Below are positions 23,396 to 40,745 of a stretch of 64,000 nucleotides of DNA, piece by piece. Within the stretch, counting starts at the first letter, position 1, and each line of letters starts with the position of its first letter. This DNA is from Gemmatimonas sp. (lineage in GTDB: Bacteria > Gemmatimonadota > Gemmatimonadetes > Gemmatimonadales > Gemmatimonadaceae), in assembly GCA_965279375.1 (NCBI GenBank), contig OZ257156.1:2144001-2208000 (forward strand), given 5' to 3'. The translations under genes and the position numbers were made by a program. A model generated the notes under the pieces. That model did not search any database. It was not told the origin of the DNA and worked only from the letters and a program-made list of their open reading frames with translations.

Positions 23396-25653
23396 TATTG
23401 CGGCCTCGCGATCGCGTCGCGCCAAGGGGCGAAGTCATCGTACAGACGGCGCACGAGGCCGTCGCTCAGGGCAATCCGCGTGATGGCGCTGCCGCGTGCG
23501 GCATCCCGCACCACCACTTCGATCTTGGGGAGTGAACCATCCTCTCGCGGCATGAACGCTGCGGGCGACACCAGCGCGACGATCTCGTTGGGCACCGGCT
23601 TTCCGGCGGCGAGATGCGCCGGCACGTTGGCCAACGCCGGAATGCGCGACGATTGCTCGAGCGCCACCGCCACGCCATCGCGCAGCAGCTCCACCGACTC
23701 CACATCACCGCGACGAATATCCAACACCTTGTCCGGCACATACGAAGGCCACGGCGCCTTTTCGGGCGTGACTTCCAGCACGTACATCGCGCGACGCGAC
23801 GACACCACTGATTTCCACGCGCCCCACCCCTCGATGGGATCCACCATCGGATACGGTTCCCCCGACGCACTCGTCTTGCCGTTGCGCCACGCGTCACCCT
23901 GTTCGGCGCGCCACACAAACACCGGCGTGGGCATGATCACGGCCCGCACGTCGCCATTGCGCACGATACGCGCCTTGCCGTCGACGCCACGAGCAATCAT
24001 CGCACGCGCGGCTGCTTCCGGATATCGCGCACGGACACTGGCCACGCGCGCGATGCTGTCGGCGCGTTCCTTCTTGCTGCGCTGCTCTGCCAACCTCGCC
24101 GAATCCCGCTGTGCGCGCTTGATGCTGTCGGCCTTGGCGGCAGCAGAACCTTTCGCGGCGACGGCTGCGGGCGTCGCAGATGCCCCGGACGGCGCAGGTG
24201 CCCCGGGCGGCGTTGGTGTGGCCGGCGGAGAGGTCTGTGTAGCACCTGTTGAGGTCGCGCCGTTCGGCGACGACGGTGCGTTAGGCGCTGCGGGCGACGG
24301 CACGACGGCGACACGAGCGGCGCTATCGGCAAGCGCGCTGTCGGCCGATGTGCGGAATGCGGCCTCGCCACTGCCTGGGGCACTGCCTGCGGAACCTCGA
24401 CCGAACGCGAGCCACAGCGCGCCGGCCACGAGCACTGCGCCGCCTGCCAGCATGCCCGCGCGAGAGGAGCCGGATGAGGTCAGGCGCACCTGCTCCTGCG
24501 TCACCCCGCTGGTGATCGCGGCCGGGGCACCCGCGCTCGACGCGGATTCCACGCCGCTGCCGACGGTGTTGGTGCGAATCGCGCTGACAGCGGCACTGTT
24601 GCGCAACCCTTCGCTGACCGAGTGCGGCGTGCGCGCGGCCACATTCGCCACGCGCGTGTCGAGCGCACGGCGATACAGCTCCGCGGTTTGCGTCGGCGTC
24701 ATGCTGCTGATCGCGCCGGAGAGCGCATGCGCAAAGTCGGAGACCGTCTCGAAGCGTTCCGCAGCATCCGGCGCCAACGCGCGATCGAAGATCTCCTGCA
24801 GCGACTGCGGCCACTCCACGTCCTCACGCGCCTTCTGCAGCGTTTGCGGACGACTGGTGAGCCGCAAGATGAGCGATTCCTTGGACGACTCCGCCGGAAA
24901 TGCCTGCTTGCCGGTGAGCGCGTAGAACGCCACCAGCGCGAGGGCGTACTGATCGCTGCGCGGGTCGAGCGTGTCTCCCGCCAGCTGCTCGGGCGACATG
25001 TACTGCGGCGTGCCGATTGCGAAGCCGGTACGGGTCACGCGCGTATTGCTCGTGTCCATCGTGCGCGCGATGCCGAAGTCCACGAGCTTCACCATGAACG
25101 TGCCATCGCTGCGAAGACCAAGCATGATGTTGTCCGGCTTGATGTCGCGGTGCAGCATGTTCAGGTCGTGCGCGGCCTGCAGCGCGTCGGCGGCCTGGCC
25201 GAGGATGTCTGCGGCGATATCCGGATGCAGCGCCGACTCACGATCCAGCTTGGCCGCCAGCGATTCGCCGTCCACATACTCCATCGCCAGATACACAATG
25301 CCGTCGGCGGTTTCGCCGAAATCGAAAATCGCCGCGATGTTGGGGTGCGACAGCTGGCTCGCGTTTTCTGCCTCGCGTGTGAAGCGTTGCAGCGCTTCCA
25401 CGTCACCAACGAGCGCAGGTCGCATGATCTTAATCGCGCTCTTGCGCTTCATGCGCACGTGTTCGCCGAGGTACACCTGTCCCATGCCACCTTCGCCGAT
25501 CCGCGAGGTGATGCGATAGCGGTCGGCGACAACCGTACCGATCAGGTCGGCGGTCTGGCCGGCGCTGACGAGCCGAGTCCCGTCCTTCGCACAGAACGCG
25601 ACGCCGTCTTCGTAGGCGTCGCCGCAGCGGGGGCAGATATTCGTCGGAGGCAC
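23395..25653 (-). CDS. Hanks-type Ser/Thr protein kinase (Zn ribbon, kinase, TM, extracytoplasmic domain)
   Basis: CPRC..FCAKDG; GEGGMGQV, AIK, HRDIKPDN, DFG, GTPQYMSPE; TM segment; Pro/Ala linker; probable GTG start. Confidence 0.92.
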   Translation of the reverse strand: MPPTNICPRCGDAYEDGVAFCAKDGTRLVSAGQTADLIGTVVADRYRITSRIGEGGMGQVYLGEHVRMKRKSAIKIMRPALVGDVEALQRFTREAENASQLSHPNIAAIFDFGETADGIVYLAMEYVDGESLAAKLDRESALHPDIAADILGQAADALQAAHDLNMLHRDIKPDNIMLGLRSDGTFMVKLVDFGIARTMDTSNTRVTRTGFAIGTPQYMSPEQLAGDTLDPRSDQYALALVAFYALTGKQAFPAESSKESLILRLTSRPQTLQKAREDVEWPQSLQEIFDRALAPDAAERFETVSDFAHALSGAISSMTPTQTAELYRRALDTRVANVAARTPHSVSEGLRNSAAVSAIRTNTVGSGVESASSAGAPAAITSGVTQEQVRLTSSGSSRAGMLAGGAVLVAGALWLAFGRGSAGSAPGSGEAAFRTSADSALADSAARVAVVPSPAAPNAPSSPNGATSTGATQTSPPATPTPPGAPAPSGASATPAAVAAKGSAAAKADSIKRAQRDSARLAEQRSKKERADSIARVASVRARYPEAAARAMIARGVDGKARIVRNGDVRAVIMPTPVFVWRAEQGDAWRNGKTSASGEPYPMVDPIEGWGAWKSVVSSRRAMYVLEVTPEKAPWPSYVPDKVLDIRRGDVESVELLRDGVAVALEQSSRIPALANVPAHLAAGKPVPNEIVALVSPAAFMPREDGSLPKIEVVVRDAARGSAITRIALSDGLVRRLYDDFAPWRDAIARPQ

Positions 25654-25752
25654 GCGGTCGGCGGAGGGTGTGCGATACGGAAGCGTCCGGCAGTGAGGTA
25701 AAACTACCACCCGCACGATTGCCGGGCGCAACACTACCGTTCAGAATGCAGC

Positions 25753-27444
25753 ATGCCCACCGCACGCACGCTTCCGCTCCACGTCTCGCTGCTGCTCGGC
25801 GCTGCACCGCTGGCCGCGCAGACTCCGTGCGACGGCAAGACCGTCAGCCGGGTCGAGATTGTGCGGTCAACGCGGACGATCGTGGACAAGATGCGTGCGC
25901 CGGGGTGGAGCCGCCCGATTCTGCAGCCGCTTTTGGTAGGCGTGCCCACACGCGAAAGTGCGATCCGTCCGTTTCTGCAGCTCGCCGTCGGAAAGTCATG
26001 CTCGGAGATTCGTCGAGCGGAGTCGGAGCGGCTCCTGCGTCTGCAGCCGTACCTGGCCGACGCCACAGTACGCGTGGTGGACGAGACCGACGGATCGGTG
26101 CGCGTCGAGGTCGAAACGATCGACGACCAGCGGCCGATCATCGGCGTGGGACTGCGCGAGTCGTCGCTCAGCTACCTCGAGCTGGGCAACAGCAACATCT
26201 CCGGTTCAGGTCATCTGGCCGCGGTGGGTTGGCGCGACGGCCGCGCCTTTCGCGACGGTATCGGCGGTCGCTATACCGACTACCACGTGCTGGGCCGACC
26301 GGTGCGCGCCAACGTCGCGTACGCCCGCTTTCCGCTGGGCTCCTTCGCACTCGCATCACTGTCTGAACCGTTCTTCACGGACCTGCAGCGCACGGCCAGC
26401 TACGCCGGATACCTGCGGGACGACGGCTATCAGCGCTTCGTGCGGCCCTCAGGGGACGCGCTGTCGCTCAACACCATTCGCGAGCGCGCCGACGCCGGGA
26501 TCGCCTGGCGGCTCGGCTCCGGCGGATCGGCGAGATATCTCCTGGGCGTGCTCGGGAGCGTCGAGCGCCGTCGGCAGCCCAGCGCGCCGGTCATCTTCGC
26601 CGACTCGGGGCTCGTCGCCACCAACGACAGCACGCTACGCGGACGTTATCGCACCACGGATGCCACACGACTTGGCGTGGTTGCCGGCGTCCGCGCCGTG
26701 ACGTTCGTGAAGGTGAAGGGCTTCGACGCGCTCGAGGGCGTGCAGGACATCGGACGCGGCATGCAGTTCGCCGCGACGATCGGCTCCAGCATCAGCGGCT
26801 CGGTGCGCGGTCCGTTCGTCTCGGCCGACTTCTACACTGGCGTGGGTGCCGAACGCTCGTTTCTCGGCCTGCGCACCCAGGTGGAGACGCGACGTGACGC
26901 GGGGAGGTGGGCCAACATCGTGGGGAGCGGCCGATTGGCGTGGTACTCACGCCCCAGCGCGAAGCAGACTCGCCTCTGGAGCCTCGAGTACGTCGGCGCC
27001 GGTCGCCACGACGTCCCGTACCAGCTGACGATGGACGATCCGCAAAGCGGCATCCGCGGCTACGCGGGGTCGCGTGTGGTTGGCGCACGTCGTCTGTTGT
27101 TGCGCGCCGAGCGCCGTGTCGTGATGCCGGGGATTTCGCGATACCTCGGCTGGGGCGTGGCCGGCTTTGCCGATGCAGCGCAGATGTGGAAGGGGACCGT
27201 TCCGTATGGTCGCAACGGAACGCGCGGCAGCGTCGGCCTCAGTCTGCTGGCCGCCGTGCCGCGCGAGTCGCGCTCACTGGCGCGCGTGGATTTTGCGTTT
27301 CCCTTCGTGCCCGACGACAACGCGAAGGATTTCTCCGTGCGCTTCACCTACACCGTTGCCGGCCGCTCCTTCTGGCGCGAGCCCTGGCAACTCGCCCGCG
27401 CCCGACTCGGCGCCGTGGCCAGCGACATCTTCACGTGGCCGTAA
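25753..27444 (+). CDS. Outer-membrane POTRA/Omp85(BamA/TamA)-like beta-barrel protein; island insertion target
   Basis: Signal peptide, ESERLLR..PYLADA POTRA-like segment, GIRGY loop motif, amphipathic strands, ARVDFAFP. Confidence 0.65.
   Translation: MPTARTLPLHVSLLLGAAPLAAQTPCDGKTVSRVEIVRSTRTIVDKMRAPGWSRPILQPLLVGVPTRESAIRPFLQLAVGKSCSEIRRAESERLLRLQPYLADATVRVVDETDGSVRVEVETIDDQRPIIGVGLRESSLSYLELGNSNISGSGHLAAVGWRDGRAFRDGIGGRYTDYHVLGRPVRANVAYARFPLGSFALASLSEPFFTDLQRTASYAGYLRDDGYQRFVRPSGDALSLNTIRERADAGIAWRLGSGGSARYLLGVLGSVERRRQPSAPVIFADSGLVATNDSTLRGRYRTTDATRLGVVAGVRAVTFVKVKGFDALEGVQDIGRGMQFAATIGSSISGSVRGPFVSADFYTGVGAERSFLGLRTQVETRRDAGRWANIVGSGRLAWYSRPSAKQTRLWSLEYVGAGRHDVPYQLTMDDPQSGIRGYAGSRVVGARRLLLRAERRVVMPGISRYLGWGVAGFADAAQMWKGTVPYGRNGTRGSVGLSLLAAVPRESRSLARVDFAFPFVPDDNAKDFSVRFTYTVAGRSFWREPWQLARARLGAVASDIFTWP
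27376..27444 (+). repeat. Left copy of 69-nt direct repeat (3' end of OMP gene, REPWQLARARLGAVASDIFTWP*)
   Basis: 62/69 identical to 38720-38788 by manual alignment. Confidence 0.95.
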
Positions 27445-27574
27445 ACCGACGCATGGTGGTCTGAGCGCGCACCGCCCAAGGCAGTGCTGGGCGTGAGTGG
27501 GTAGAGTCTGGGAGATGCCCTCGCCACCAAGCGCATATAGCACACACGAGCACGACTGCGCGTGCTCTCACGAC

Positions 27575-29221
27575 CTATGCCTGTGATGGATCGACATCCC
27601 CTGTCGGAAGCAGAGGCAATCCCAGCTCTCGCAGGAATCCATTGTGTGTGTCCCGCGCCTTCCTAATCTCCTTCTCGATCGCCATGAGTGCCTGGTTCGT
27701 GGCCGTCAGATCAATCTCCTCCTCACCAACCGCTGTGCTGATGTAGCGGGAGATGTTGAGGTTGAAATCGTTTTTCTCGATCTCCGCCATCTCTACCCGG
27801 CGGGCGTATCGCTCGATGGGCTTCTCAGGTCGCTGTTGATACGTGTCGACGATCTTCGCAATGTGCGCGGCGCTGAGCTGGTTCTGGCGCTTGCCCTTCT
27901 CGAAATGTTCGGCGGCGTTGATGAACAGCACATCGTCTGGCTTCTTGCACTTCTTGAGCACGAGGATGCAGACCGGAATGCCCGTCGAGTAGAATAGATT
28001 GGCGGGCAGGCCGATCACGGTATCGATGTGACCGTCCTTAAGCAGCTTCGTACGAATGCGTTCCTCGGCGCCGCCCCTGAACAGCACGCCATGGGGCAGG
28101 ATGATGGCCATGACGCCTTCGTCCTTGAGGAAGTGGAAGCCGTGCAGCAGGAAGGCGAAATCGGCGGCTGACTTGGGTGCGAGGCCGTGGCTCTTGAAGC
28201 GCACGTCGTCGCCCATGCTCTCGCCGGCGTCCCAGCGGTAGCTGAACGGCGGATTGGCGACGATGGCGTCGAAGAGCGGCTTCCTGGCCGGGTTCGGCTC
28301 GCGCAACATGTCCCACTCGTTGAGCAGTGTATCGCCGTGGAAGATCTCGAACTCCGTGTCCTTCACCCCGTGCAGCAGCATGTTCATGCGTGCCAGGTTG
28401 TAGGTGGTGATGTTCTTCTCCTGGCCGAAGATCTTGCCGATCGTGCCGCCGTCTTTGGTCACGCGCTTCCGCACGTTGAGCAGCAGCGAGCCGGAACCGC
28501 AGGCGAAGTCCATTACCCGTTCCAGCCGCTTCTTCGTACCGGTATTGGGCTCCTGACTGTCCAGCGTCACGATGGCGGAGAGGATGTCGGAGATCTGCTG
28601 CGGCGTGTAGAACTCGCCCGCCTTCTTGCCGGACCCCGCGGCAAACTGGCCGATCAGGTATTCGTAGGCGTCGCCGAGCGCGTCGATGTCCGTCGAGAAC
28701 TCGTTGAGCCCTTCGGCGATCTTCTGGATGACGGTGCAGAGCTTTGCATTCTTTTCGGCCTGAGTCTTGCCCAGCTTGGGCGAATGCAGGTCGATCTCCG
28801 AGAACAAACCCTGAAAGGTGCTCTCGAACGATTCCGTCTCGATGTACTTGAAACCGTCCTGCAACGTGCCCAGCAGCTCGCCGTTCTGCGTGCGGGCCAG
28901 ATTGGCGATACTGTTCCATAGGTGTTCCGGTTTGATGACATAGTGCACCTTGCGCCGCATCTGCTTCTCGAACTCCGGGATGTCATCCACGTTGTTCGCG
29001 TACCACAGCGCCAGCGGCACCTTACGGGCTTCGCCGCCGGTGTCGGGGTAATCCTTGCCCAGTTCCTTCTTCGCCGCCGTCTCGTAGTTGTCGGAGAGGT
29101 AGCGCAGGAAGAGAAACGAGAGCATGTAGTCGCGGAAATCGTCCGCATCCATCGCCCCGCGCAGTTGATCGGCGATGCTCCAGAGCGTATTGCCGAGTTG
29201 CTTCTGAGTGGTCTCGCTCAT
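27575..29221 (-). CDS. hsdM: Type I R-M methyltransferase subunit M (m6A)
   Basis: LWSIADQLRG, GEFYTP, DFACGSG (motif I), NPPF (motif IV), PHGVLFRG. Confidence 0.96.
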   Translation of the reverse strand: MSETTQKQLGNTLWSIADQLRGAMDADDFRDYMLSFLFLRYLSDNYETAAKKELGKDYPDTGGEARKVPLALWYANNVDDIPEFEKQMRRKVHYVIKPEHLWNSIANLARTQNGELLGTLQDGFKYIETESFESTFQGLFSEIDLHSPKLGKTQAEKNAKLCTVIQKIAEGLNEFSTDIDALGDAYEYLIGQFAAGSGKKAGEFYTPQQISDILSAIVTLDSQEPNTGTKKRLERVMDFACGSGSLLLNVRKRVTKDGGTIGKIFGQEKNITTYNLARMNMLLHGVKDTEFEIFHGDTLLNEWDMLREPNPARKPLFDAIVANPPFSYRWDAGESMGDDVRFKSHGLAPKSAADFAFLLHGFHFLKDEGVMAIILPHGVLFRGGAEERIRTKLLKDGHIDTVIGLPANLFYSTGIPVCILVLKKCKKPDDVLFINAAEHFEKGKRQNQLSAAHIAKIVDTYQQRPEKPIERYARRVEMAEIEKNDFNLNISRYISTAVGEEEIDLTATNQALMAIEKEIRKARDTHNGFLRELGLPLLPTGDVDPSQA

Positions 29222-30228
29222 GGCTTGGTGCGTCGCTTGATAGTGGACTCCAGCGCATCGAGGTCAGCGGCGTCTTGCTGGTCGGCCTGCTGTGCTTCGC
29301 GTGTTCTGCGCTGCAGGTCGAACGCGAGATAGAGCTCGCCGGTACGAGCTTCCATGTGTTCGTGACTGATGGAGCCAGCGTGCGTGAGCAACGGGAATCC
29401 GTTCGAGCTGATGATCTGATCCACGTTATGCTTCCAGAATTCCATGCGCGTGTCCTGTTTGGACTTGGCGCGGAGCTCGGCGGTTTCCAGAAAGATGACC
29501 ACCAGCCGGTTCAGCGTATCGATCTCGTCTTCGGTCAGGTAGTTCTTCGCGACGACGATGTCGGTCTTTCGCACTTTGTCGCCCTTCCAGGCGAGCAGCC
29601 CGAAATGCGGATCGTCGGGATTGGCGCGAGCGGTAATGAGTTCAGCGGCGGTCTTGCGTGTTACTGCAAATATCAGAACGTTCTGCACGGTCGCAAAGAA
29701 CTGCTGTGTTGCTGAGTCGGTCTTGTCGTAGTCGCTGGACAGCGCGAAGAGATCGCGCACTTTCTGATAGAATCGCTTTTCCGAGGCGCGGATGTCCCGG
29801 ATGCGCTCCAGCATCTCATCGAAGTAATCCGGTCGGCCGTCCGGGTTCTTCAAGCGTTCGTCGTCCATGACGAAGCCCTTGATGAGGTATTCCTTGAGGA
29901 CGGTGGAGGCCCAGCGCCGGAACTGCACCCCACGCGGCGAGCGCACGCGGTAGCCCACGGCAAGAATGGCGTCGAGGCTGTAGAGGGTGACCGGGCGCTG
30001 CACCTCGCGGTTGCCCTCGGTTTGAACTACCGAGGATTCCTCGGTAGTTGCCGTCCGGTCCAACTCCCCTTCCTCGAAGATGTTCTTCAGATGCAGCCCG
30101 ACATTGTCGGAGCTGACATTGAACAACTCCGCCATGTCTTTCTGCGTCAGCCAGACAGTTTCGTCTTTGGCCCGCAGCTTGATCTGGCTGCGACCATCGT
30201 CGGTGGTGTAGAGGATCAAGTCGTTCAC
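29218..30228 (-). CDS. rhuM: RhuM-family (virulence RhuM) DNA-binding protein
   Basis: ETVWLTQ..MAELF, HLKNIFEEGEL, YSLDAILAVGYRVRS.RG.QFR.WA, KGF.MDDERLK, IRDIRASEKRFYQ. Confidence 0.9.
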   Translation of the reverse strand: MNDLILYTTDDGRSQIKLRAKDETVWLTQKDMAELFNVSSDNVGLHLKNIFEEGELDRTATTEESSVVQTEGNREVQRPVTLYSLDAILAVGYRVRSPRGVQFRRWASTVLKEYLIKGFVMDDERLKNPDGRPDYFDEMLERIRDIRASEKRFYQKVRDLFALSSDYDKTDSATQQFFATVQNVLIFAVTRKTAAELITARANPDDPHFGLLAWKGDKVRKTDIVVAKNYLTEDEIDTLNRLVVIFLETAELRAKSKQDTRMEFWKHNVDQIISSNGFPLLTHAGSISHEHMEARTGELYLAFDLQRRTREAQQADQQDAADLDALESTIKRRTKP

Positions 30229-31460
30229 GGGGGCGTGACCGGCGTTGCTGAAACGGCTCCGCGAACCGCTGGAGCGATGTCCGGCAGCGAGAACTGAAAC
30301 TTGGTGGTGAAGTCCCGAAGGATGCGGCGGAACAACTCCTGGTTGTCCTCGCCCATCTCGGTCGGCTCGTGAATGGCGTACTTGCCGTGACTCAGAAGAT
30401 TCAGAGCGCGGTTGTAAAGCGCGAGGTCTTCCTCGTTGTCCAGTGCCTTGAGGCAGAACCCAATGTCAGCGTGCCCGAAGAACGACGCGGTCTTCTCCAG
30501 GATGCTTCGCAGGGCGTTGAAATGAAACGTGTAGAGCTTGCCAGTGGCGGGATCTGCGGCCAGCTGCAGCTCTGCCATCGTTGCAACGTGATGGAAAAAC
30601 GGCGTGTCCTCTGTGGCGCGGAGTGTGTACGTCCCATCCGAGTTCGGACGGTGCAGGAAATAGCGCTTGTGCCTCACTGCCGGCGCGCCCTCCTTGGACC
30701 TGCCGATCTCATTGCACATCACGTTGAAGAACAGCGCATGGTGGGATGAAAACACCACCTTGATGGGAGCGTCGTTGCCATCCGCGCCCGTCCGGCTCGC
30801 GGCCCGGCGCACAAGGTTGGCAAGGTCACAGGCGACGGCGATGGCGTTGTTGTCGTCCAAGGACGAGATCGGGTCGTCTATATAGAGGTATTTCACGGCC
30901 GGAAACGCGCCGGGAAATTTCAGAACCTGTTCAGCAATGGCCATGAACACGCACCAGATGAAGATGTTCTGCTCACCACGCGAAATCTTTATCTGCGACT
31001 GATCACCTTTACCGAAACTGACGAAAACGGGCCTGGAGAACGACTCACTTCCCCGCTGCACTACCTCGTACGTGAAATCAAAGCTGAAGTCCGCGTAGCG
31101 CTTCAGGTATTCATCTATGACGGGCTCCAGAGGCTCATTCTTGAATGCATCAAAGAAACGCGACCCTTGGTTGATATTGAGACCGCGAGCGGTGTCGTTC
31201 TCAAGGTCGTTGTCCCAAGTGAAGAGATCCTCGGTGAAGGCATTGAAGTAGAGACAGTCAGCGATACCCTGCGGATTCTTCTTGCTCTTGCGTTTTGCGG
31301 CGTTTTTGAACTCCATGGACAGTCGCGTCTTACCGGTGCGGTTGTACGCGAAAATGAGCACAAGCTCTAGGGGACTCGTCGGATTGTTTAGATCATCCCG
31401 CAGCCTGGTCGCCAACATTCGGAGATTCGACAAGCGATGAATCCTTGGCTTTGCTCTCAT
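30225..31460 (-). CDS. prrC: PrrC-type anticodon nuclease (ABC ATPase + HEPN)
   Basis: AYNRTGKTRLS, NAFTEDLF.WDND PrrC box, ISRGEQ signature, IDDPISSLD Walker B, SHH H-loop, RSILE and RALNLLSH HEPN residues. Confidence 0.85.
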   Translation of the reverse strand: MRAKPRIHRLSNLRMLATRLRDDLNNPTSPLELVLIFAYNRTGKTRLSMEFKNAAKRKSKKNPQGIADCLYFNAFTEDLFTWDNDLENDTARGLNINQGSRFFDAFKNEPLEPVIDEYLKRYADFSFDFTYEVVQRGSESFSRPVFVSFGKGDQSQIKISRGEQNIFIWCVFMAIAEQVLKFPGAFPAVKYLYIDDPISSLDDNNAIAVACDLANLVRRAASRTGADGNDAPIKVVFSSHHALFFNVMCNEIGRSKEGAPAVRHKRYFLHRPNSDGTYTLRATEDTPFFHHVATMAELQLAADPATGKLYTFHFNALRSILEKTASFFGHADIGFCLKALDNEEDLALYNRALNLLSHGKYAIHEPTEMGEDNQELFRRILRDFTTKFQFSLPDIAPAVRGAVSATPVTPP

Positions 31461-32749
31461 GCCTCAACCTCTGCCGATGTTGGGAAAAGCCGCTGCATCA
31501 GCCCGCGCTTGTGGCGCTTCAGGGCTCCGAGTCCTCGCGCTTCGGCGGTGATTAGGGCGTCGACTACGCCGAGGCAGGTGCCTATGCGTTGTTGCTCGGC
31601 AGGCGAGGGGAAAGACACCTCCATGTCAAGTATGTCGGTCCGGGACAACCCGGGTATCAGGTTTCCCGAACCCAAGTCTGCGAAGCGTCTCCTCTTCGTG
31701 AGCAGGAATTGAAAAATGAACTGGCTCGATCCTCGTTTGGCGCGAATGGCCATGAGTTGGCGTCCCAACGCTACCGCCGGCAGAGTCGAAAACCACACTT
31801 CTCCAACGCCGCTTCCCTTTACCGTGATCAACGTGTCGTTAGGCGCTGCCACGTTCGCTGACCGTTTCGTCCACTTACAAACGTTCTCCACGTCATTGGT
31901 AAAGTCGGAAGGACCCGTGAAGTAGGGTACTTCTCCCGTTGTGCTGTATTGGTTGGGCGACAAATGCAATCCCGAGATCAAATGAACTTCGCTGGACAGG
32001 CGTTTCTCTGCCCACGCTGCGACGCTTCCGAATTCGGAGAAGCGGAGTCGCGGTTGGGTTTCCCCTTCGCGAGGGAACAGCTGCTGCATCAGCCATTTCT
32101 TGTGGGTCTTCAGCGCGTCCACTTTCCGCGCTTGCGCCGCGATCACGTCGTCCACAGAACCCAGGCACTCGGCGATTTTTTGTTGCTCTGCGAGGGATGT
32201 CCTTCCGCTTGGAACCGGCACAGGAAGAGCAAGAAGATCGTCTTCGTTGATGCTTAGCGAGCCGTGCGCACGAGCACCGACCTCAATAAACTTTTGCAGC
32301 CACCGGCCATGCAGATTGCCGAGGAACAAGTAGTTGAGATACTGCGGAACTGGTGAATCGCCCGCGATGCGGAAACATGTGAAAATGCTGTTCGGGACTG
32401 CCGCCAGCTCGTCTCCGGAATACATCGCGATGAACCCTTCGGGATTCTCCTTGGTGGCGCTTTTGTTGTAGGCGAAGTCGTGCTTCTTCAGCAGCAGGTA
32501 GTTGGAATAGGAGTTTCCGGCGATGATCCGCCCGAACTTATTCATCTGACTTACCAGTCCGACTCCTGATGTGATGCTCATCGGGATCGCGGTCCGATCG
32601 CCAACTTTCTCTGTGCTGATTCTGGCGACCGACCCAAGTGTTTCTGTGGTCCACTCCCCAGCACCGCGAAACTCCGGAAACCGTAGCTTCGGCACCGACG
32701 CGACCTTACCGACAGCCTTCGCGCTTTGGGTTTTCGCCTTACTGCTCAT
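31457..32749 (-). CDS. hsdS: Type I R-M specificity subunit S
   Basis: Two TRDs with duplicated conserved regions PKLRFPEF/PRLRFSEF, EQQKIA/EQQRIG, LMQQLFP/LMQRLFP. Confidence 0.93.
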   Translation of the reverse strand: MSSKAKTQSAKAVGKVASVPKLRFPEFRGAGEWTTETLGSVARISTEKVGDRTAIPMSITSGVGLVSQMNKFGRIIAGNSYSNYLLLKKHDFAYNKSATKENPEGFIAMYSGDELAAVPNSIFTCFRIAGDSPVPQYLNYLFLGNLHGRWLQKFIEVGARAHGSLSINEDDLLALPVPVPSGRTSLAEQQKIAECLGSVDDVIAAQARKVDALKTHKKWLMQQLFPREGETQPRLRFSEFGSVAAWAEKRLSSEVHLISGLHLSPNQYSTTGEVPYFTGPSDFTNDVENVCKWTKRSANVAAPNDTLITVKGSGVGEVWFSTLPAVALGRQLMAIRAKRGSSQFIFQFLLTKRRRFADLGSGNLIPGLSRTDILDMEVSFPSPAEQQRIGTCLGVVDALITAEARGLGALKRHKRGLMQRLFPTSAEVEA

Positions 32750-35700
32750 AGGCACTCAATCCTGAGATCTCGCGTCCCTGCGCACGCTTGGTGAGCAGCG
32801 GGTACAGTTCCGCCATGAGGGCGAGTTCGGCGTCCTTGCGCGCCTTCCAGCCAAGGTCGAGCGAGACGAAAAGATCACCGAGCTGTTCGGCGTCAAAGAT
32901 CATGCGATCGAGAATGGCGTCCACGAATCCTTGCAGGGCGACAGTGGTGAGGCCGTGCTTCTGCGCGACGGCAGCGAGTTCCGCCGCGCTCTTCTCGCTT
33001 TTGAAGCGCGTGTAACCCTCCCGGATGGCGGCTTCGCTCAAACCCTCCCCCGCCTTGAGCGTTTCGATGTAGGCGGCGATGCCCTCGCGCTCGTCCATGA
33101 ACTTGGCGTCCGAGCTGATCAGTCCTATCAGCTGCTCTCGGGTCATCTTCGACTTGCCGGGCCCTTTCTCCGAGAATCTGGCAATGAGCCCCATGATGTA
33201 GTCGTAGTCGATGACGGCCGAAGCGAAGAGCACGAACTCGAAATCGAGCTGGTCGCCGGCGTCAGCGTCGGGCTTGTCGTTGCCTCCGCCTTTGCCCTGC
33301 TGCTCGCGCAGGCGCTGGGCTGTCTCCAGGTACGCGCCCTTAAAGCCACGATGCTGTTCGTTCGGCAACACCTGCTCGATGGCGGCCTTATCGTCGTTAG
33401 TCAGGTCGGTGTACTGATCGAGCTGGGTCTTGAGCCGCTGCACTTCCTTAAAGCACTCAATGAAGCCGGCGCGAGCGGCGTCGCCCTTGAGGTTCGGCAC
33501 GGCCTCCGGCGCGGTATCGAGCCCCTGTGACTTCATAAAGCTTTCGAGCTGCTGCACGGCGGCCTGCAGCTTCTGAATGACGACCGGCGCCTTGTCCACG
33601 AGCCAGATCTCCCGCGCTTCCTCACGGGTCTTCTTGCCGGAGAACATGGCGATCGCGGCATCCACCTCGTCCCGCTGCTGGCGGAAGTCGAGGATGTTGC
33701 CATACGGCTTGGTGCCATTGAGCACGCGGTTGGTGCGAGAGAACGCCTGAATGAGCCCGTGGTGCCGCAGATTCTTGTCGACGTAGAGCGTGTTGAGATA
33801 CTTGGAATCGAATCCCGTCAGCAGCATGTCCACCACGATGGCGATGTCGATCTTGTTCGCGTGCGGGAAGTCGGCATTGGGCCATTGCTGGTCCTTGATG
33901 CGCTTCTGCACGTCCTGGTAGTAGAGATCGAACTCGCTGAGCTTGTGGTTGGCGCCGTAGCGCGCATTGTAGTCCGCAAGAATGCTGTTCAGCGCTGCCT
34001 TCTTGCCTTCCGGGTCCTGCTCGTTGTCAGCCCTTTCCTGCGGCAGGTCTTCTTGGATCTGCTGCACGTCCCGGTTGCCCTCGGCGGGCGGCGAAAACAC
34101 GCACGCGATGTTCAGCGGTTCGAACTCAGGATCCGCGACTTGCTTCTCCGCCTGCAGCGTCTTGAACAGGCCGTAGTACTCGATGGCATCGTTGATAGAC
34201 GCGGTGGCGAGGATGGCATTGAAGCGGCGTCCCGCGGTGGCGACATCGTGCTTGTCCAGAATGGCTTCAACGACAGAGCGCTTGGGCGTTCCCTCGCCCG
34301 GCTTGGGTGTCTTCTTTCCTGCGTCTTCCTTGGGTCCAAAGTAGTCCACGTGGAAGCGCAGCACGTTCCGGTCTTCGATGGCGTTCGTGATGGTGTAGGC
34401 ATGTAGCTGCTTCTGGAACAGATCCTCCGTCGTGCGCATGGAGGCCATGCCGTCTTCGATCTTCTGCTGACGAGAGTTCTCCTCAAAGATTGGCGTGCCC
34501 GTGAAGCCGAACAGCTGGGCTTTCGGGAAGAACTCCGTGATCGCCTTGTGGTTGTCGCCGAACTGCGAGCGATGACATTCGTCAAAGATGAAGACGATGC
34601 GCTTGTCCTTGAGCGGCTCCAGCAGCTCCTTGAACGTGGGTTGGTCGTTTCGCTTCCGCTGCTTGTTGCGCTTGCTGTCTTCGTCCAGCGCGAGACCGAG
34701 CTTTTGGATGGTGGTGACGATGACCTTGTCGGCGTAGTCCTCTGAGCGCAAACGGCGAACGAGGGCGGCCGTGTTGGTGTTTTCCTCGACACTGCCTTCC
34801 TGAAATCGATTGAACTCCTCGCGCGTCTGCCGGTCGAGATCTTTGCGGTCCACAACAAACAGGCACTTGTGAATGTGCTCGTTCTGCTTGAGCAGCGTCG
34901 ACGCCTTGAACGAGGTCAGCGTCTTACCGCTGCCGGTGGTGTGCCAGATGTAGCCGTTGCCCGCGTCGTCTTCGATGCACTGCATGATCTGCTGCACGGC
35001 ATAGACCTGATACGGGCGCATGATCATGAGCTTCTGCTCGCTCTGGATCAGCACCATGTAGCGGCTGATTGTCTTGCCGAGTGCGCACTTTTGCAGGAAG
35101 CGGGCAGCGAAGTCGTCGATGTGCGTGATCTTCTTATTGGCCTCGTCGGCAAACTCGTAGATGGGCAGGAACCGTTCTTCGGCGTTGAAGGCGAAGTGGC
35201 GGGCGTTGTTATTGGCGAAGTAGTAGGTGCGGTTGCGGTTGCTGACGATGAAGAGCTGGAGGAAGCAGAGCAGCGTCCTGGTGTAACCGTTGCCGGGATC
35301 GTTCTTGTAGTCGACGATCTGCTCCATCGCTCGGCGCGGGCTGATTTCGAGCGTCTTGAGCTCGACCTGCACGCAGGGCACGCCGTTGATGAGCAGAATG
35401 ACGTCGTAGCGGTGGTGGCTATTGTCCGTGTTGATGCGGAGCTGATTGACGACCTCGAAGGTGTTCTTGCACCAGTCCTTCAGGTTCACCAGTGTGAAGT
35501 TCAGCGGTGTTCCGTCTTCGCGGGTGAACGCATTGATCTCCCGCAGGGTCTTCGCGGCGGTGAAGACATCGGCGGTGACGATCTCGTCGAGCAGGCGCGC
35601 GAACTCGCTGTCGGTGAGGTGAACGCGATTGAGGGCCTCAAACTTCTCGCGGAAGTTCTTCTCCAGCGCGGCGCGGTCGCGGATTTCCGGGCGATACGTG

Positions 35701-35810
35701 TACTTCAGCCCCTGGAGCGTGCCGATGAAGCCGTATTCGATCGTGTCCTCACGGAGGACCGAGGGCTCAAGGTCGTCGGAAGGGTAGATGCTATCAGAGA
35801 TGCTGTTCAT
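32739..35810 (-). CDS. hsdR: Type I R-M restriction subunit R
   Basis: RYDV..LING.P.VQVELK nuclease motif, HTTGSGKT, DECH, FTGTP, MLLTGFD, QAFSRTNR; start may be 35852. Confidence 0.96.
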   Translation of the reverse strand: MNSISDSIYPSDDLEPSVLREDTIEYGFIGTLQGLKYTYRPEIRDRAALEKNFREKFEALNRVHLTDSEFARLLDEIVTADVFTAAKTLREINAFTREDGTPLNFTLVNLKDWCKNTFEVVNQLRINTDNSHHRYDVILLINGVPCVQVELKTLEISPRRAMEQIVDYKNDPGNGYTRTLLCFLQLFIVSNRNRTYYFANNNARHFAFNAEERFLPIYEFADEANKKITHIDDFAARFLQKCALGKTISRYMVLIQSEQKLMIMRPYQVYAVQQIMQCIEDDAGNGYIWHTTGSGKTLTSFKASTLLKQNEHIHKCLFVVDRKDLDRQTREEFNRFQEGSVEENTNTAALVRRLRSEDYADKVIVTTIQKLGLALDEDSKRNKQRKRNDQPTFKELLEPLKDKRIVFIFDECHRSQFGDNHKAITEFFPKAQLFGFTGTPIFEENSRQQKIEDGMASMRTTEDLFQKQLHAYTITNAIEDRNVLRFHVDYFGPKEDAGKKTPKPGEGTPKRSVVEAILDKHDVATAGRRFNAILATASINDAIEYYGLFKTLQAEKQVADPEFEPLNIACVFSPPAEGNRDVQQIQEDLPQERADNEQDPEGKKAALNSILADYNARYGANHKLSEFDLYYQDVQKRIKDQQWPNADFPHANKIDIAIVVDMLLTGFDSKYLNTLYVDKNLRHHGLIQAFSRTNRVLNGTKPYGNILDFRQQRDEVDAAIAMFSGKKTREEAREIWLVDKAPVVIQKLQAAVQQLESFMKSQGLDTAPEAVPNLKGDAARAGFIECFKEVQRLKTQLDQYTDLTNDDKAAIEQVLPNEQHRGFKGAYLETAQRLREQQGKGGGNDKPDADAGDQLDFEFVLFASAVIDYDYIMGLIARFSEKGPGKSKMTREQLIGLISSDAKFMDEREGIAAYIETLKAGEGLSEAAIREGYTRFKSEKSAAELAAVAQKHGLTTVALQGFVDAILDRMIFDAEQLGDLFVSLDLGWKARKDAELALMAELYPLLTKRAQGREISGLSAYEQ

Positions 35811-35971
35811 GATGATCGCAGAAGTCTCGGAGCGCGCGATGGCGTGCAGCATAGCACAACGACGCCACGGATGGCCCGGTGGTTCAGTCGTGGGGTCAAT
35901 GGCGCATTTTGCTTCAACGGCTACAGCAAACTAGCCGCTGATAGCGGAGTGCGCGCCGACGTCCGGAGGGC

Positions 35972-36580
35972 TCACGGTTCGCCCTCGATGCAGATCACAG
36001 CGCCTGGAATCGTCGCACCAACAGTGGTTGGGAAGCTGCCGCCCAACCGATTCCGTATCTCGTCGATGATTGCGATGGTCCGGATGCGACTGTCAGCGAA
36101 GGAGATCGCCGACCCTGCGTCGACAAGATCGGACGCATGATTGAGGCAGCCGACACTCCAGGCATAGCCCATTCCTGGATGAAGCAGGATGGCTGTGCGC
36201 TGGCCCGTCTGCTTCAAGAGCAGACCCGGTCGCGGGAGCGCAGTATGGCTCGCGCTCGAAGAGTAGCCGGCGGTCCGGTACTTTGGGCCAGCATGGACGG
36301 CCAGAGGGTACGTTCCGGCCGCGATGCGGCGATCCCTCAGGTCTCCAATGGCAGTCGAGTTATCTCCCGGTCCGCCACGTTCAACAGTCTGGCCATGCAG
36401 GCCTGCGATAGGCGCTCCGTTCCAATGGCAAGAGTAGTTGCTGACGGTCCGAGGAAACGCCTTGTCGGAACGAAGTTCTTGTCGAACGCGCTGAACCAAG
36501 AGGCAGAAGCCGGTAGCCGGAACAGGCATGCGCACTATCTCCGTGTCGGTCGATACGTGAAGCTGCGGTAGGTGCGGCAC
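35972..36580 (-). CDS. DUF5675/L,D-transpeptidase-like protein
   Basis: TVE..IAAGTYPL and RTAILLHPG....SVGC (His...Cys dyad); GTG start directly follows upstream TGA. Confidence 0.55.
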   Translation of the reverse strand: MPHLPQLHVSTDTEIVRMPVPATGFCLLVQRVRQELRSDKAFPRTVSNYSCHWNGAPIAGLHGQTVERGGPGDNSTAIGDLRDRRIAAGTYPLAVHAGPKYRTAGYSSSASHTALPRPGLLLKQTGQRTAILLHPGMGYAWSVGCLNHASDLVDAGSAISFADSRIRTIAIIDEIRNRLGGSFPTTVGATIPGAVICIEGEP

Positions 36581-38566
36581 TCACCGAGGCAGATACGCAA
36601 CCGATAGCGTGAAGTATCTGTTGCCCGGTGCGGCAAAGCCGCCAGAGCGCCGACTAAACTCGCTGCCGCGCCAGATGCTCTGAAAGCCGAGGCGGGCTCG
36701 AGCAACCTCGATCTCGCCGCCGAAGGCGGCCTCCGCGTATCCTGATCGCAACCGAAGGTCACTGTCGCTGACAGGTACGCCTGCCGCCGGCAGTACGGGA
36801 GCGCTATGACCACCGGTGATTGTCTCGTTTCGCGCCGTTGCTCGGAGCATCGCGGTGGCGATAAGCGCGTACCGTACCCGAGGACGGGCTTCCTTTGCGT
36901 CAACGGGCGGGCGCTGAGCCGTGGGTTGGCCCGGCTCGAACGTGTCGCGAGGCCCTCCGCGAACCAGAGGACTGTTCAAAGTGTCAGCCTCCGCCAGCCT
37001 GACTTGGATCACAGGACCGATGGCCCGAAACAGGGGCGAGCCCGGAAGGCGATGCCTGTTGTGGGCCCACCTACCAGAGACTCCCAACGACGCGCGGTGG
37101 AAGACCGATCCGACGGCCATACCCGCGTGAAGGGCCACGTCGGCCCCGTCCAGAGGGACAAGCAGGTCACAGAACTTCCCTGATCCGCACGAATCCCTCA
37201 ACACGGCGCCAGTCGTGGCACTCGGTCGATACCACAGATCGGCGAGTGCCTGGACATAAGGTCGACCTGGAGTCTGAAAGCGCCAGCCGCTGGGCCTCTC
37301 CGCCGTCGTCGCAATCGCCCAATGCGCCATCCGCTGCGTCTCACGCGCTTGAGCGGTCGGCCCAATCACCCCCAACTGCGCTTCAAGTCCGACAATGAAG
37401 TCTCCGTCCCCCCAACTCGCCTTCTGCCCCTTGTCGAAGAATTCGCGTCGCATGACCTCCCAGCGGGCAGAGCCGTAGAGCAGTCCCGCGAACGGTCGGT
37501 CGAAACGCTGTACCGTGTCGGCATACTGATCCGTGGGAGTGTACATGGTCTGCTGGACTGCGGCGCTGGTGCGAATGCACGTGACCACTGACGTCGAATC
37601 GGCAACGGTGTACTTCGCGCACTCCGGCAGCTTTGCGCCGAGTGCGCTGACGATGCCATACAGCCCCACAGACTCGTGAAGCTGCAGTCGAACGCCGTTC
37701 GTGTAGGCGCGATCAGTCCAGATTAGGTCGTTCTCGAGCGTCAACTCCACCGATCGAGCCGATGCACTTCGTAGATCTCCCGAACTTCTGACATCCTCGG
37801 CCTTCGCATCAAATCGTCGATCGAGCGGAATCGAGATTCGTGCGAAGTACTTCGCGCCGCTTCCTCGGAGCGCGCGGGCAGGTCCGGCTGCTCCCAGGGA
37901 GTCCAGCACATTGTAGCTGGCATCGAACAAGTGCTCGGCCCCCACGGCGACTGACGGCCATATCCCTTTCGCGGGCAGGCGCAGAGCAAGTCCGACCGCT
38001 GGGTGTACTGCGACGCGATCAACGAGCCCTCCTGACTCACGACGCTCGACTGCCCGTCTCGTCGCACCCAAGGCCACTTCCGCCGACAAGTCACGGTACG
38101 TCGGGAAGCTCAGCCAGCCACGCGCAGACGCGTCTCCGACCGAAAGATCGGGTTGTCGACGGGACACACGATCAATGGGGTCGCCAAGCAGCCGATCTGA
38201 GACTCCTCCCAGCGTGCTGAGAACGAGCCCAGCGTCGAATCCGAAACGCCATCGAGCAACGAGTTGACGATTGACACGAAGTCCGACGCCGCTCCCGGTC
38301 TGCGTCCGCAAAGCGTCGGTTCGGAGGTTCTCACCCGCATCCAGGAGGTGACTCTCCAGAAGCCACTCCAGCTGGGTCTTGGGTCGCGACGCAGCTGACG
38401 TCTGTGCCTCCGCCTCGGAAGCGGCACCCGCGGACACAAGCGCGAAAGCAAGAACGACTTGCGAAGCTGCGTGAACGACGCGGGCGTCGTCGAGTCGCCC
38501 GGGGCGGAGCTGTGGGAGCAGATGCGCCCCACGACGCTTCTGAAATGACACAGAGATTACTCGCAC
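36581..38566 (-). CDS. LpxR (lipid A 3'-O-deacylase, DUF2219)-like barrel with extra N-terminal beta domain
   Basis: ENDL..DRAYTNG, QTMYTP, DRPFAGLLY, LGVIGP, QRMAH, GW; start uncertain. Confidence 0.7.
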   Translation of the reverse strand: MRVISVSFQKRRGAHLLPQLRPGRLDDARVVHAASQVVLAFALVSAGAASEAEAQTSAASRPKTQLEWLLESHLLDAGENLRTDALRTQTGSGVGLRVNRQLVARWRFGFDAGLVLSTLGGVSDRLLGDPIDRVSRRQPDLSVGDASARGWLSFPTYRDLSAEVALGATRRAVERRESGGLVDRVAVHPAVGLALRLPAKGIWPSVAVGAEHLFDASYNVLDSLGAAGPARALRGSGAKYFARISIPLDRRFDAKAEDVRSSGDLRSASARSVELTLENDLIWTDRAYTNGVRLQLHESVGLYGIVSALGAKLPECAKYTVADSTSVVTCIRTSAAVQQTMYTPTDQYADTVQRFDRPFAGLLYGSARWEVMRREFFDKGQKASWGDGDFIVGLEAQLGVIGPTAQARETQRMAHWAIATTAERPSGWRFQTPGRPYVQALADLWYRPSATTGAVLRDSCGSGKFCDLLVPLDGADVALHAGMAVGSVFHRASLGVSGRWAHNRHRLPGSPLFRAIGPVIQVRLAEADTLNSPLVRGGPRDTFEPGQPTAQRPPVDAKEARPRVRYALIATAMLRATARNETITGGHSAPVLPAAGVPVSDSDLRLRSGYAEAAFGGEIEVARARLGFQSIWRGSEFSRRSGGFAAPGNRYFTLSVAYLPR

Positions 38567-38719
38567 ATTTTCCTCGCTCTGCGGACGGATAACGGCAGTC
38601 CTTCCAGTGCGCGACGATTGGCTGTCCCGGATTTCCGGCTACTCGCCGCTCATTTGTAACGTCCAGGCGAACAGATACTCAGACAGAGTAGAAGGAAAAT
38701 AGATCGTGGTCAGTCGCCG

Positions 38720-38788
38720 CGCGAGCCGTGGCAGCTCGCCCGCGCCCGACTCGGCGCGGTGGCGAGCGACATTTTCACCTGGCCGTAG
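38720..38788 (+). repeat. Right copy of 69-nt direct repeat: orphan 3' end of OMP gene
   Basis: Encodes the identical 22 aa plus stop; 7 synonymous differences from 27376-27444. Confidence 0.95.
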
Positions 38789-38838
38789 TATCCCGTTTCC
38801 ACGCCGTTCACAACGAACCGCTAAGCGTTTCCCGCAGT

Positions 38839-38996
38839 ATCCGCGAGCCGTTTCCGCGCGTTTCAGCTCCTATCCGTGGCCGAGCAGTTCGTCCGTTCCT
38901 ATCCGCCGTGCAAATCCCGTGGATTGGTTTGGATCATAGCGGATGAACTGCCTTGCCACGGATACCAACGGAAACGCGCGGAAGAAGCGCGCGGAT
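38839..38996. repeat. 158-nt imperfect inverted repeat / rod-like hairpin (MITE/REP-like element or structured RNA)
   Basis: Stems 38839-45/38990-96, 38852-64/38971-83, 38871-80/38955-64, 38884-97/38938-51, 38901-04/38931-34. Confidence 0.8.
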
Positions 38997-39077
38997 CAGA
39001 CCTGAGCGTGCACCAGGCGCGAGCGCGGATTAGGTCGAAGCGAGTCGCGAGTTCCTAACGCTTTGTTGAAATAGGGG

Positions 39078-40607
39078 TCAGGGCACACTGCCCTTGCGGT
39101 AGTCGAGCTGCGGCTTCTGCGTGCCCAGTACGGTGCTGTACACGAAGTTCGCACCGCGACGCTTCTGCAGTTCGGCCTTGGCCGCTTCGATCGTGGCAGG
39201 TGTCGCGAAGAGATCCGCACCCGTGAGCGCCATCGTCTTGGCGGCCACCATCATCCCCTTGGCGCCGATGCTCATGCCGCCGGCAGCAACGGCTTGCCAG
39301 GAATGCGCCGCGGTGCCGGGCACCCAGGTGGCCGCCGAGAGCTGCACCGTGGGGACGTTCCAGCTGATGTCGCCCACGTCCGTGGAGCCTGCGCCCGCCT
39401 GATCGAGCACCAGCGGCTTGATCAGTGACGTGCTGGCCAGCGGACGCGCCACGAAGTTGGGGGTCTTCTGCAACTGTTCGGCAAAGGCGCGCTCCTCCGC
39501 AGTGTAGGTGAAGCCGCCCACTCGCTCGAGCGCGCGCTGCTGCACGCGCGCGAGGGTTTCGTTGGGGAGCAGCGCGTACACCGAGCCGATGAGCTGCAGG
39601 TCGTACGTGGTGCCGGTGCCGATCGCAGCGCCCTTGGCGGCGTTGACCACGCGTGACCAGACATCGTTGACGACGTTCATGTCCACGTGGCGCACGTAGT
39701 AGTACACCTCCGCTTCATCGGGCACGACGTTCGGCGCCTTGCCGCCATCCGTGATCACGTAGTGGATGCGCGTTCCGTCGGGGATGTGTTCGCGCAGGTA
39801 GTTGGTCATCACGTCCATCACTTCCACGCCATCGAGTGCGGAGCGGCCACGCTCCGGTGCCGCGGCTGCGTGTGAGCTGATGCCGTGAAAACGGAACTTG
39901 CCGGTGATGTTGGCCATCGTGCGTTCGCCGGTGACGCTGTTGTCGTCGCCCGGATGCCACGCGATCACCGCGTCCACGTCGTTGAAGATCCCGTCACGCA
40001 CCATGTACACCTTGCCCGAACCACCTTCTTCGGCGGGGGTGCCGATCATGCGCAAGGTGCCCTTCACCTTGTTGGCGATCATCCATTCCTTGAGCGCGAT
40101 CGCGGCGGCGGTGCTGGCCGTGCCAAACAAATGATGGCCGCAGCCGTGTCCTGGTCCGCCCGCGATGAGTGTCTTGCGAGTGGGCGACGCGTCCTGTGAA
40201 AGCCCCGGCAATGCATCGAATTCGCCGAGCAAGGCGATCACGGGCTTTCCGCTGCCGTACTCGGCGATGAACGCGGTGGGTTCACCGGCGATCCCCGCAG
40301 TCACCGTGAAGCCGGCCGTTTTGAGTTCGCTTTGCAGCAACGCCGACGACTTCACCTCCATGTAGCCCACCTCCGCGAAGCCCCAGATCCGCTTCGCCAC
40401 GTCGGCGTAGTGCGCAGCGCCGTTGTCCAGCGCGGCCAGCATGGGCGTGGTGTTGAGGGCGGCCTTGGCCAGTGGCGCGGGCGGGGCTGACTGCGCGGTG
40501 AGCGTCGTGCTGAGGGGCGCGGCAATCAGCGACGAAGCCAGCACTGACAACGCGCGAGCGACGCCGGGGGCGAGCCAGCGGGGCGAAGAGGACTTTGGCA
40601 GGGGCAT
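39078..40607 (-). CDS. M20 amidohydrolase (AbgB, aminobenzoyl-glutamate hydrolase B-like), secreted
   Basis: GEFDALPG, GHGCGHH, GTPAEEGG, WHP, HAAAAP.RGRSALD, GSTDVGD. Confidence 0.9.
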   Translation of the reverse strand: MPLPKSSSPRWLAPGVARALSVLASSLIAAPLSTTLTAQSAPPAPLAKAALNTTPMLAALDNGAAHYADVAKRIWGFAEVGYMEVKSSALLQSELKTAGFTVTAGIAGEPTAFIAEYGSGKPVIALLGEFDALPGLSQDASPTRKTLIAGGPGHGCGHHLFGTASTAAAIALKEWMIANKVKGTLRMIGTPAEEGGSGKVYMVRDGIFNDVDAVIAWHPGDDNSVTGERTMANITGKFRFHGISSHAAAAPERGRSALDGVEVMDVMTNYLREHIPDGTRIHYVITDGGKAPNVVPDEAEVYYYVRHVDMNVVNDVWSRVVNAAKGAAIGTGTTYDLQLIGSVYALLPNETLARVQQRALERVGGFTYTAEERAFAEQLQKTPNFVARPLASTSLIKPLVLDQAGAGSTDVGDISWNVPTVQLSAATWVPGTAAHSWQAVAAGGMSIGAKGMMVAAKTMALTGADLFATPATIEAAKAELQKRRGANFVYSTVLGTQKPQLDYRKGSVP

Positions 40608-40745
40608 GGCGAGGCGGCGAAAGGGTTCGTCACGAGATCGTTGCGCAATAACAGTGCATCTGGAACCGAAGCGTGGGGAGACTGTGCTTGAGTTCGCCGA
40701 CCCTTCAGAGCGGGCAATGTCGGACTCCCGCAACCACGAGGTTTC

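Follow-up and report, generated by a model that had tools for sequence, protein, structure and literature searches.

Insertions with long target duplication, as described by Furuta, Abe & Kobayashi (2010), hold both restriction (R) and modification (M) genes in an insert of less than 20 kb, are bounded by a direct repeat of more than 30 bp, carry no other mobile genes and have an empty site in another genome (PMC2853133). The repeats listed for this class include imperfect ones (57/64, 59/64 and 83/96) and often span a start or stop site, and one Haemophilus influenzae case has a type I block split by other genes (PMC2853133). A different system is e14, a prophage in the Escherichia coli gene icd, which excises on SOS induction and is accompanied by the pseudogene icdC (PMC13626634). 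In E. coli, one-sided integration yielded 56 of 60 clones that were single crossovers of recircularised linear DNA, with gene-end duplications of 109-950 bp (PMC3240628), and displaced 3' ends at type VI secretion system and Rhs loci were ascribed to homology-facilitated illegitimate recombination (HFIR) (PMC5361080). Here we describe an island of 11,344 bp in Gemmatimonas sp. (assembly GCA_965279375.1, contig OZ257156.1), located within a stretch of 64,000 nt (positions 2,144,001 to 2,208,000 of the contig), which is referred to as the window. The island carries a type I restriction-modification (R-M) block between two recoded copies of the end of a gene for a putative outer-membrane protein, the target gene. 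Its favoured explanation, with a probability of roughly 0.6, is a recombinase-free, homology-driven capture of DNA from a sister lineage, of the 'long target duplication' type. Relatives place the host in the genus Gemmatimonas.

The last 69 nt of the target gene (27376-27444) recur 11,344 bp downstream (38720-38788, likewise 69 nt), and both copies encode the same peptide, REPWQLARARLGAVASDIFTWP, followed by a stop codon; the translations agree with the initial annotation, which had drawn attention to this recurrence. The copies differ at 7 of 69 positions (62/69 identical), all of them synonymous and at third codon positions (codons 3, 5, 13, 15, 18, 20 and 23 of the repeat), and share a perfect core of 23 nt (nt 16-38), exactly as had been listed. 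One more identical base is found on the 5' side (69-70 nt in total); the flanks beyond are unrelated, and the repeat has a sharp 5' edge that begins with 9 matching bases. Because just 51 of the 207 possible single changes are synonymous, a set of seven synonymous differences out of seven is not explained by chance (p about 5.5e-5). Both copies were thus under coding selection until recently, as the initial annotation had proposed. The host gene retains an intact reading frame, which ends in the left copy; the right copy lies outside any gene, its frame meeting a stop 20 codons upstream.

A blastn comparison of both copies with the whole genome (5.31 Mb) returned these two copies only (E 1.8e-21; next best 0.005), so that the direct repeat, longer than 30 bp, is a single pair and the right copy does not belong to a multi-copy repeat. 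The stretch is present in four sequencing runs, which look like one mixed sample that may be the source of the assembly. In each of these runs one contig of 64,137 bp covers the left junction (24500-28361) and one contig of 3,968 bp covers the right copy (34932-38899), both with zero mismatched letters, and depth is similar inside and outside the insert. No contig joining both copies, as expected of an excision joint, was found in the four runs of this one sample, in which contigs can hide or drop rare structural forms; the missing joint is no proof of stability.

That the block is an insertion, as had been claimed, is supported by an empty site in two loci from Gemmatimonas species other than the host. 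In L039 (genome G070), whose target protein is 89% identical to that of the host, the target gene is directly followed by the same REP-like hairpin repeat and then by an M20 peptidase gene; in L041 (genome G086) the target gene adjoins the M20 gene. The host has the hairpin and the M20 gene behind the right copy, just as at the empty site, and no recipient DNA of note was deleted. The hairpin, not part of the initial annotation, occurs at 13 genomic loci, each just past the end of a plus-strand gene, with 10 of the 13 between convergent genes.

Regarding polarity, 3/69 positions differ between the L039 tail and the right copy, against 6/69 for the left copy; at the 7 variable sites the L039 tail agrees with the right copy in 5 cases and with the left in 2. 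Since this closer empty-site relative is nearer to the right copy, and given the hairpin/M20 context, the right copy is most likely the displaced native gene end, in line with the annotation's view that the native end had been moved. The rest of the gene predicts 7.8 synonymous differences per 69 nt between host and L039; the 3 observed for the right copy (P 0.016; 5 would give P 0.13) lean towards a wholly native right copy, tempered by the merely 4 differences from L039 in the 69 nt upstream of the tail. Import would then account for all or part of the left copy, and the data fit a crossover at the 5' edge as well as one in the 23-nt core. With 7/69 differences from the right copy, close to the 7.8 expected between host and L039, the left copy looks as if it was derived from a lineage at roughly the distance of L039. 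The earlier proposal was that the block came from a related strain; the donor looks more like a sister lineage than like a close strain. Locus L039 itself (L039:4686-12530) is an island of about 7 kb of similarity to the host locus with truncated ends; transposase-like insertions lie in its kinase gene, and its Omp85-like gene has an in-frame TAG near codon 205.

Between the copies lie seven open reading frames (ORFs), all on the minus strand (Table 1). A Pfam search of these and of flanking genes (part of the five neighbours on each side) found no recombinase, transposase, resolvase or phage gene, in agreement with the initial annotation. A tblastn search of the locus found no recombinase remnant, and the three insert spacers (130, 119 and 152 bp) leave no room for one. 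The genome-wide search asked for by that annotation also bears out the integrase-less description: four proteins with PF00589 were found, none of them in the window, and proteins with PF07508 or PF00239 are absent from the host genome (profile searches; transposase families were not searched genome-wide). Judging from sequence and neighbours, the four PF00589 proteins would be XerD, XerC, an integron integrase and the integrase of a tRNA-Thr prophage. The integron-like integrase is followed by about 135 kb with many related repeats of 105-125 nt (G000:C1:1245979-1382000; G000 is the host genome), apparently a large chromosomal cassette array. The integrase at tRNA-Thr adjoins a 75-kb element bounded by a perfect 35-bp repeat (G000:C1:4274283-4349632), a probable prophage or island. 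At the island, the search for arm-site motifs gave merely 7-11-nt matches, the chance level for GC-rich DNA, and promoter scans at both insert ends found nothing.

Table 1. Features of the island and its borders (positions in the window)
Feature	Position	Strand	Evidence and remarks
Target gene, 563 aa, candidate Omp85/BamA-like outer-membrane protein	25753..27444	+	PF01103 of homologs
Left copy	27376..27444	+	working last 22 codons + TAA; 6 differences from L039 empty-site allele
Left spacer, 130 bp	27445..27574	.	no further copy in genome; too short for recombinase gene
hsdM, type I methyltransferase	27575..29221	-	PF02384, PF12161; TIGR00497 above cut-off
rhuM, RhuM-family protein, PADLOC candidate PDC-S05	29218..30228	-	PF13310 E 3e-109; PDC-S05 E 5e-149
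prrC, PrrC-like anticodon nuclease	30225..31460	-	PADLOC PrrC E 5.7e-125; AAA_13
hsdS, type I specificity subunit	31457..32755	-	PF01420; PADLOC Specificity_I
hsdR, type I restriction subunit, EcoR124_C domain	32739..35852	-	PF12008, PF04313; TIGR00348 above cut-off
DUF5675-like protein, ORF of 202 aa	35972..36580	-	42 homologs, several with PF18925
LpxR-family outer-membrane protein	36581..38566	-	PF09982 E 5.7e-29
Right spacer, 152 bp, upstream region of LpxR-like gene	38567..38718	.	no match to target gene
Right copy	38720..38788	+	orphan last 22 codons + TAG; 3 differences from L039 allele
REP-like hairpin repeat, 66-nt arms, native neighbour of gene end	38831..39000	.	z -5.55
M20 peptidase gene (start approximate), native downstream neighbour	39078..40700	-	PF01546

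The target protein had no Pfam or NCBIfam match in a direct search. Its homologs point to a possible Omp85 identity: PF01103 is found in 18-30% of the members of the atlas clusters that match it at a score of 0.99, and in 13 of 120 homologs among the matches listed. The gene is accessory in the genus: 19 of the 86 other genomes, with 20 loci in all, contain a close homolog of its last 59 aa. Nineteen of these loci were examined, 11 of them with 9 kb or more of downstream sequence, and none of the 19 showed a duplicated tail, a tyrosine recombinase or the element. Downstream neighbours vary among the 19 loci, and in 18 of them the tail differs from that of the host at 17-32 of 69 nt. An accessory gene with so variable a tail would be a poor target for a dedicated integrase. 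The suggestion that the target gene is a hotspot for defence cassettes was rejected on the same survey of orthologous loci (0/19). PF07508 matches occur in 18 of 87 genomes of the genus, none on a contig with a close target ortholog; one lies on a contig (genome G027) that holds a distant target homolog about 43 kb away.

Other displaced tails turned up in a scan of 3962 predicted gene ends of the host for orphan copies at distances of up to 60 kb, which excluded the integron array and any copy forming the end of a second predicted gene. Five downstream matches resulted (three convincing, two with internal stops), together with one unconvincing upstream match. The three convincing cases involve unrelated genes and measure 70 nt with 7 differences (this island), 42 nt with 1 and 43 nt with 9; no tyrosine recombinase is encoded in any of the three inserts, and their sites have no convincing arm motif in common. 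In the 42-nt case (G000:C1:2328819-2332809), the end of a 283-aa gene recurs 3,139 bp downstream with one synonymous change, behind 3.1 kb of cargo consisting of a 505-aa membrane-protein-like gene, a BlaI-type repressor and DUF5694. In most relatives this site is empty and adjoins a phytoene synthase-like gene; in 31 loci of other genomes no duplicated tail was found, and five had inserts of 0.5-4.3 kb. In the 43-nt case (G000:C1:587625-589122), a DnaJ-domain gene has an orphan copy of its end 712 bp downstream, across a single 152-aa gene, with three amino-acid changes among its 9 differences; an empty site was not found for it. Elsewhere in the host, a 130-aa gene lies inside a tandem-like repeat unit of about 687 bp, a copy of which overlaps its stop codon (G000:C1:2703694-2704419).

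A survey of 1.31 Mb of selected, non-random stretches of other genomes of the genus (919 predicted genes) added two further genes with displaced tails. In genome G066 a 47-nt tail copy of an asparaginase gene lies 2,810 bp downstream, behind one 861-aa gene and no recombinase (L046:8717-12946). A short overlap joins this orphan tail to a 53-nt segment that is identical to an internal part of the asparaginase gene; longer duplicates therefore get trimmed. In G070 an ABC-F ATPase gene, which we take to be EttA-like, has two displaced tails of 103-107 nt, 877 bp and 38.4 kb downstream (G070:C1:3692194-3732469). Within the 38-kb defence island of G070 are type I R-M, SMODS nucleotidyltransferase, OLD-like, HipA and Fic genes; a tyrosine recombinase is encoded mid-island, beside neither repeat. 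The other displaced-tail cases, which lack a recombinase, have non-R-M cargo.

The insert described here contains homologs of both R and M genes, with hsdM, hsdS, hsdR and prrC in one operon. Its last two genes, coding for the DUF5675-like and LpxR-family proteins, are not among known defence genes, a point added to the initial annotation. Homologs of the DUF5675-like protein are mostly about 185 aa long, against 202 aa here, and the LpxR-family protein is rare in the family, with weak matches in 3 of 200 family genomes. The PrrC-like protein had no match in the PDB. GC content between the copies is 0.597, against 0.654 for the genome; GC3 of hsdS and of the DUF5675-like and LpxR-family genes lies at about the 0.2nd percentile, and hsdM and hsdR are host-like. 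Related R-M cassettes (71-86% identical) occupy other sites in genomes G011, G061, G032 and G096, and among the matches listed their similarity stops at the coding ends. In G011 a 13-kb block that includes efflux-like genes lies directly upstream of the related hsdR and is flanked by a 289-bp direct repeat (93% identical; G011:C9:61220-74835). In G061 a decayed duplicate (79-81%) of the 3' part of a gene lies about 1 kb downstream of that gene (G061:C1:97855-99350) and 35 bp from the end of the related hsdM.

In the favoured capture from a sister lineage, a donor fragment from a related Gemmatimonas lineage, comprising an orthologous Omp85-like gene end, the R-M/PrrC block and two more genes, would have entered the chromosome with the gene end as sole homology. 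Its ends may have been joined into a circle, followed by a single crossover in the shared tail; alternatively, homologous pairing at one end may have been combined with an illegitimate join at the other, possibly with trimming of a longer displaced piece. The imported tail would thereby have been placed on the host gene, and the native tail, hairpin and M20 gene shifted 11.3 kb downstream. The block probably persists by protecting against phage through type I R-M and the PrrC nuclease. Capture is favoured over an integrase because the genome has two more integrase-free displaced tails and none of the 19 orthologous loci holds the element. L039 contains a broken piece of the locus of about 7 kb, and fragments of the locus therefore do move. 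Capture also draws support from the placement of the related R-M cassettes at other sites, from the trimmed duplicate in G066 and from the E. coli integrations of recircularised DNA as an experimental precedent (PMC3240628). Genes for ComEC and DprA, which would suit capture, are present in the host; both are widespread, being found in 10 and 11 of 14 control genomes, and are no sign of competence. Several observations weigh against capture. No Ku gene for end-joining was found in the host genome, and 69 bp with 7 mismatches is short for a RecA-dependent crossover. Both island ends are clean and intergenic, with no gene cut, which a random break would not favour, and synonymous divergence from L039 upstream of the tail lacks the step expected at the edge of a long donor tract; comparison with L041 reveals no such tract either. 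Neither a conspecific nor a donor in which the gene end adjoins this cargo was found in the genome collection, the metagenome or the viral contigs: the genome collection gave 2 loci, the metagenome scan with the target protein gave 120 candidate stretches of which none was confirmed, and a degenerate pattern of the shared tail had 0 matches in metagenome contigs and 0 in viral contigs. Finally, the G070 island demonstrates that integrase-bearing gene-end islands exist in the genus.

This last point keeps alive a tentative alternative, to which we give clearly less weight than to capture: a site-specific integrative element of the e14/icd type, whose attP carried a recoded gene 3' end; the integrase would have been supplied in trans or lost by a later deletion. 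Elements of this type typically carry defence genes; the element's tail restores the target gene, and a sharp 5' edge with 9 identical bases and two intergenic ends would suit site-specific entry. The anatomy is the same as that of icd/icdC around e14 (PMC13626634). Yet the locus has neither an integrase remnant nor room for one in spacers of 119-152 bp, the four PF00589 proteins of the genome lie outside the window and PF07508/PF00239 proteins are lacking, the element recurs at 0 of 19 orthologous loci, and the contigs of the four runs, which may drop rare forms, contain no excision joint. Three separate integrase losses would be needed in one genome, and even in G070 the recombinase sits mid-island, away from both repeats. 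Far less probable is a true target duplication, in which the host gene end was copied during double-strand break repair, as in the R-M-linked model, and diverged later. The cargo is indeed R-M, the class is enriched around R-M genes and its authors put forward DNA breakage as a shared cause (PMC2853133), but a copy freed from coding selection would not gain synonymous changes alone (p about 5.5e-5), and other displaced tails occur without R-M genes. With L039 as outgroup, the right copy accounts for 2 of the 7 changes (p about 0.06 if these are taken by themselves) and the coding left copy for 5; this is the reverse of neutral decay and would require a later allele replacement. Explanations by a chimeric assembly of two strains, or by a repeat that is multi-copy or due to chance, are scarcely credible: the runs do look like one mixed sample, maybe the assembly's source, but contigs bridge the left junction and the right copy in 4 of 4 runs with no differing letter and at similar depth, and the repeat has two copies only. 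The artefact reading was rejected on these grounds.

A broader reading is unlikely as a whole. It holds that 'tail swapping' is a routine way of gene gain in Gemmatimonas, run by a host-encoded, sequence-general process that needs neither integrase nor R-M enzyme, pairs mismatched gene ends of 40-100 nt from sister lineages and installs what follows, always at intergenic boundaries. If true, 'long target duplications' would be imported orthologous tails, not copies.

The non-R-M cargo of the extra cases suggests that R-M enzymes are passengers, not drivers; together with the purely synonymous divergence it suggests imported tails and a general host route. Islands of this type would be invisible to island finders anchored on integrases.

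Regarding known systems, we liken the combination of type I R-M and PrrC to the prr locus of E. coli. As there, a gene of the PrrC family is embedded in an hsdM/hsdS/hsdR operon; unlike there, prrC lies between hsdS and rhuM/hsdM, and the activity of the system described here is predicted from its genes. The prophage e14 encodes its integrase and resides in a conserved core gene, whereas the island has no recombinase and its target gene is accessory. Lacking a tyrosine or serine integrase and with no site reuse (0/19 loci), the island falls outside the integrase-encoding elements, although it resembles e14/icd-icdC in that the working gene takes its end from the element side, with the displaced tail at the far end, and in that some differences are synonymous (PMC13626634). 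With HFIR and single-crossover capture it shares a displaced 3' fragment behind the new DNA, and it would share one-sided homology that imports non-homologous cargo, in which the left copy may be the end of the anchor; a gene-end duplication is also what a single crossover with a circle leaves (PMC3240628, PMC5361080). HFIR is further marked by 3-10 bp of microhomology at the illegitimate joint. In its classical form, however, it usually deletes recipient DNA in an amount similar to the insert, and none of note was lost here; the laboratory duplications measured 109-950 bp with identical homology, compared with 69 bp and 7 mismatches here (PMC3240628).

A literature search combining Gemmatimonas, horizontal gene transfer and restriction-modification gave no report of such insertions in the genus. 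The novelty implied by the initial annotation does not hold, as R-M blocks within long imperfect repeats over a stop codon and without mobility genes are already described (PMC2853133). The island has every property by which Furuta et al. define the class in the covered sections: R and M genes in less than 20 kb, a unique repeat over the stop codon, no mobility gene and an empty site. It differs from their cases in coming from another phylum and in having its empty site in another species. The known class of recombinase-free R-M insertions is thereby extended to Gemmatimonas. The island also provides a clean case that bears on how 'long target duplications' form, because the purely synonymous differences within its 62/69 repeat argue for import of one repeat and not for copying, a point absent from the covered sections of that paper (PMC2853133).

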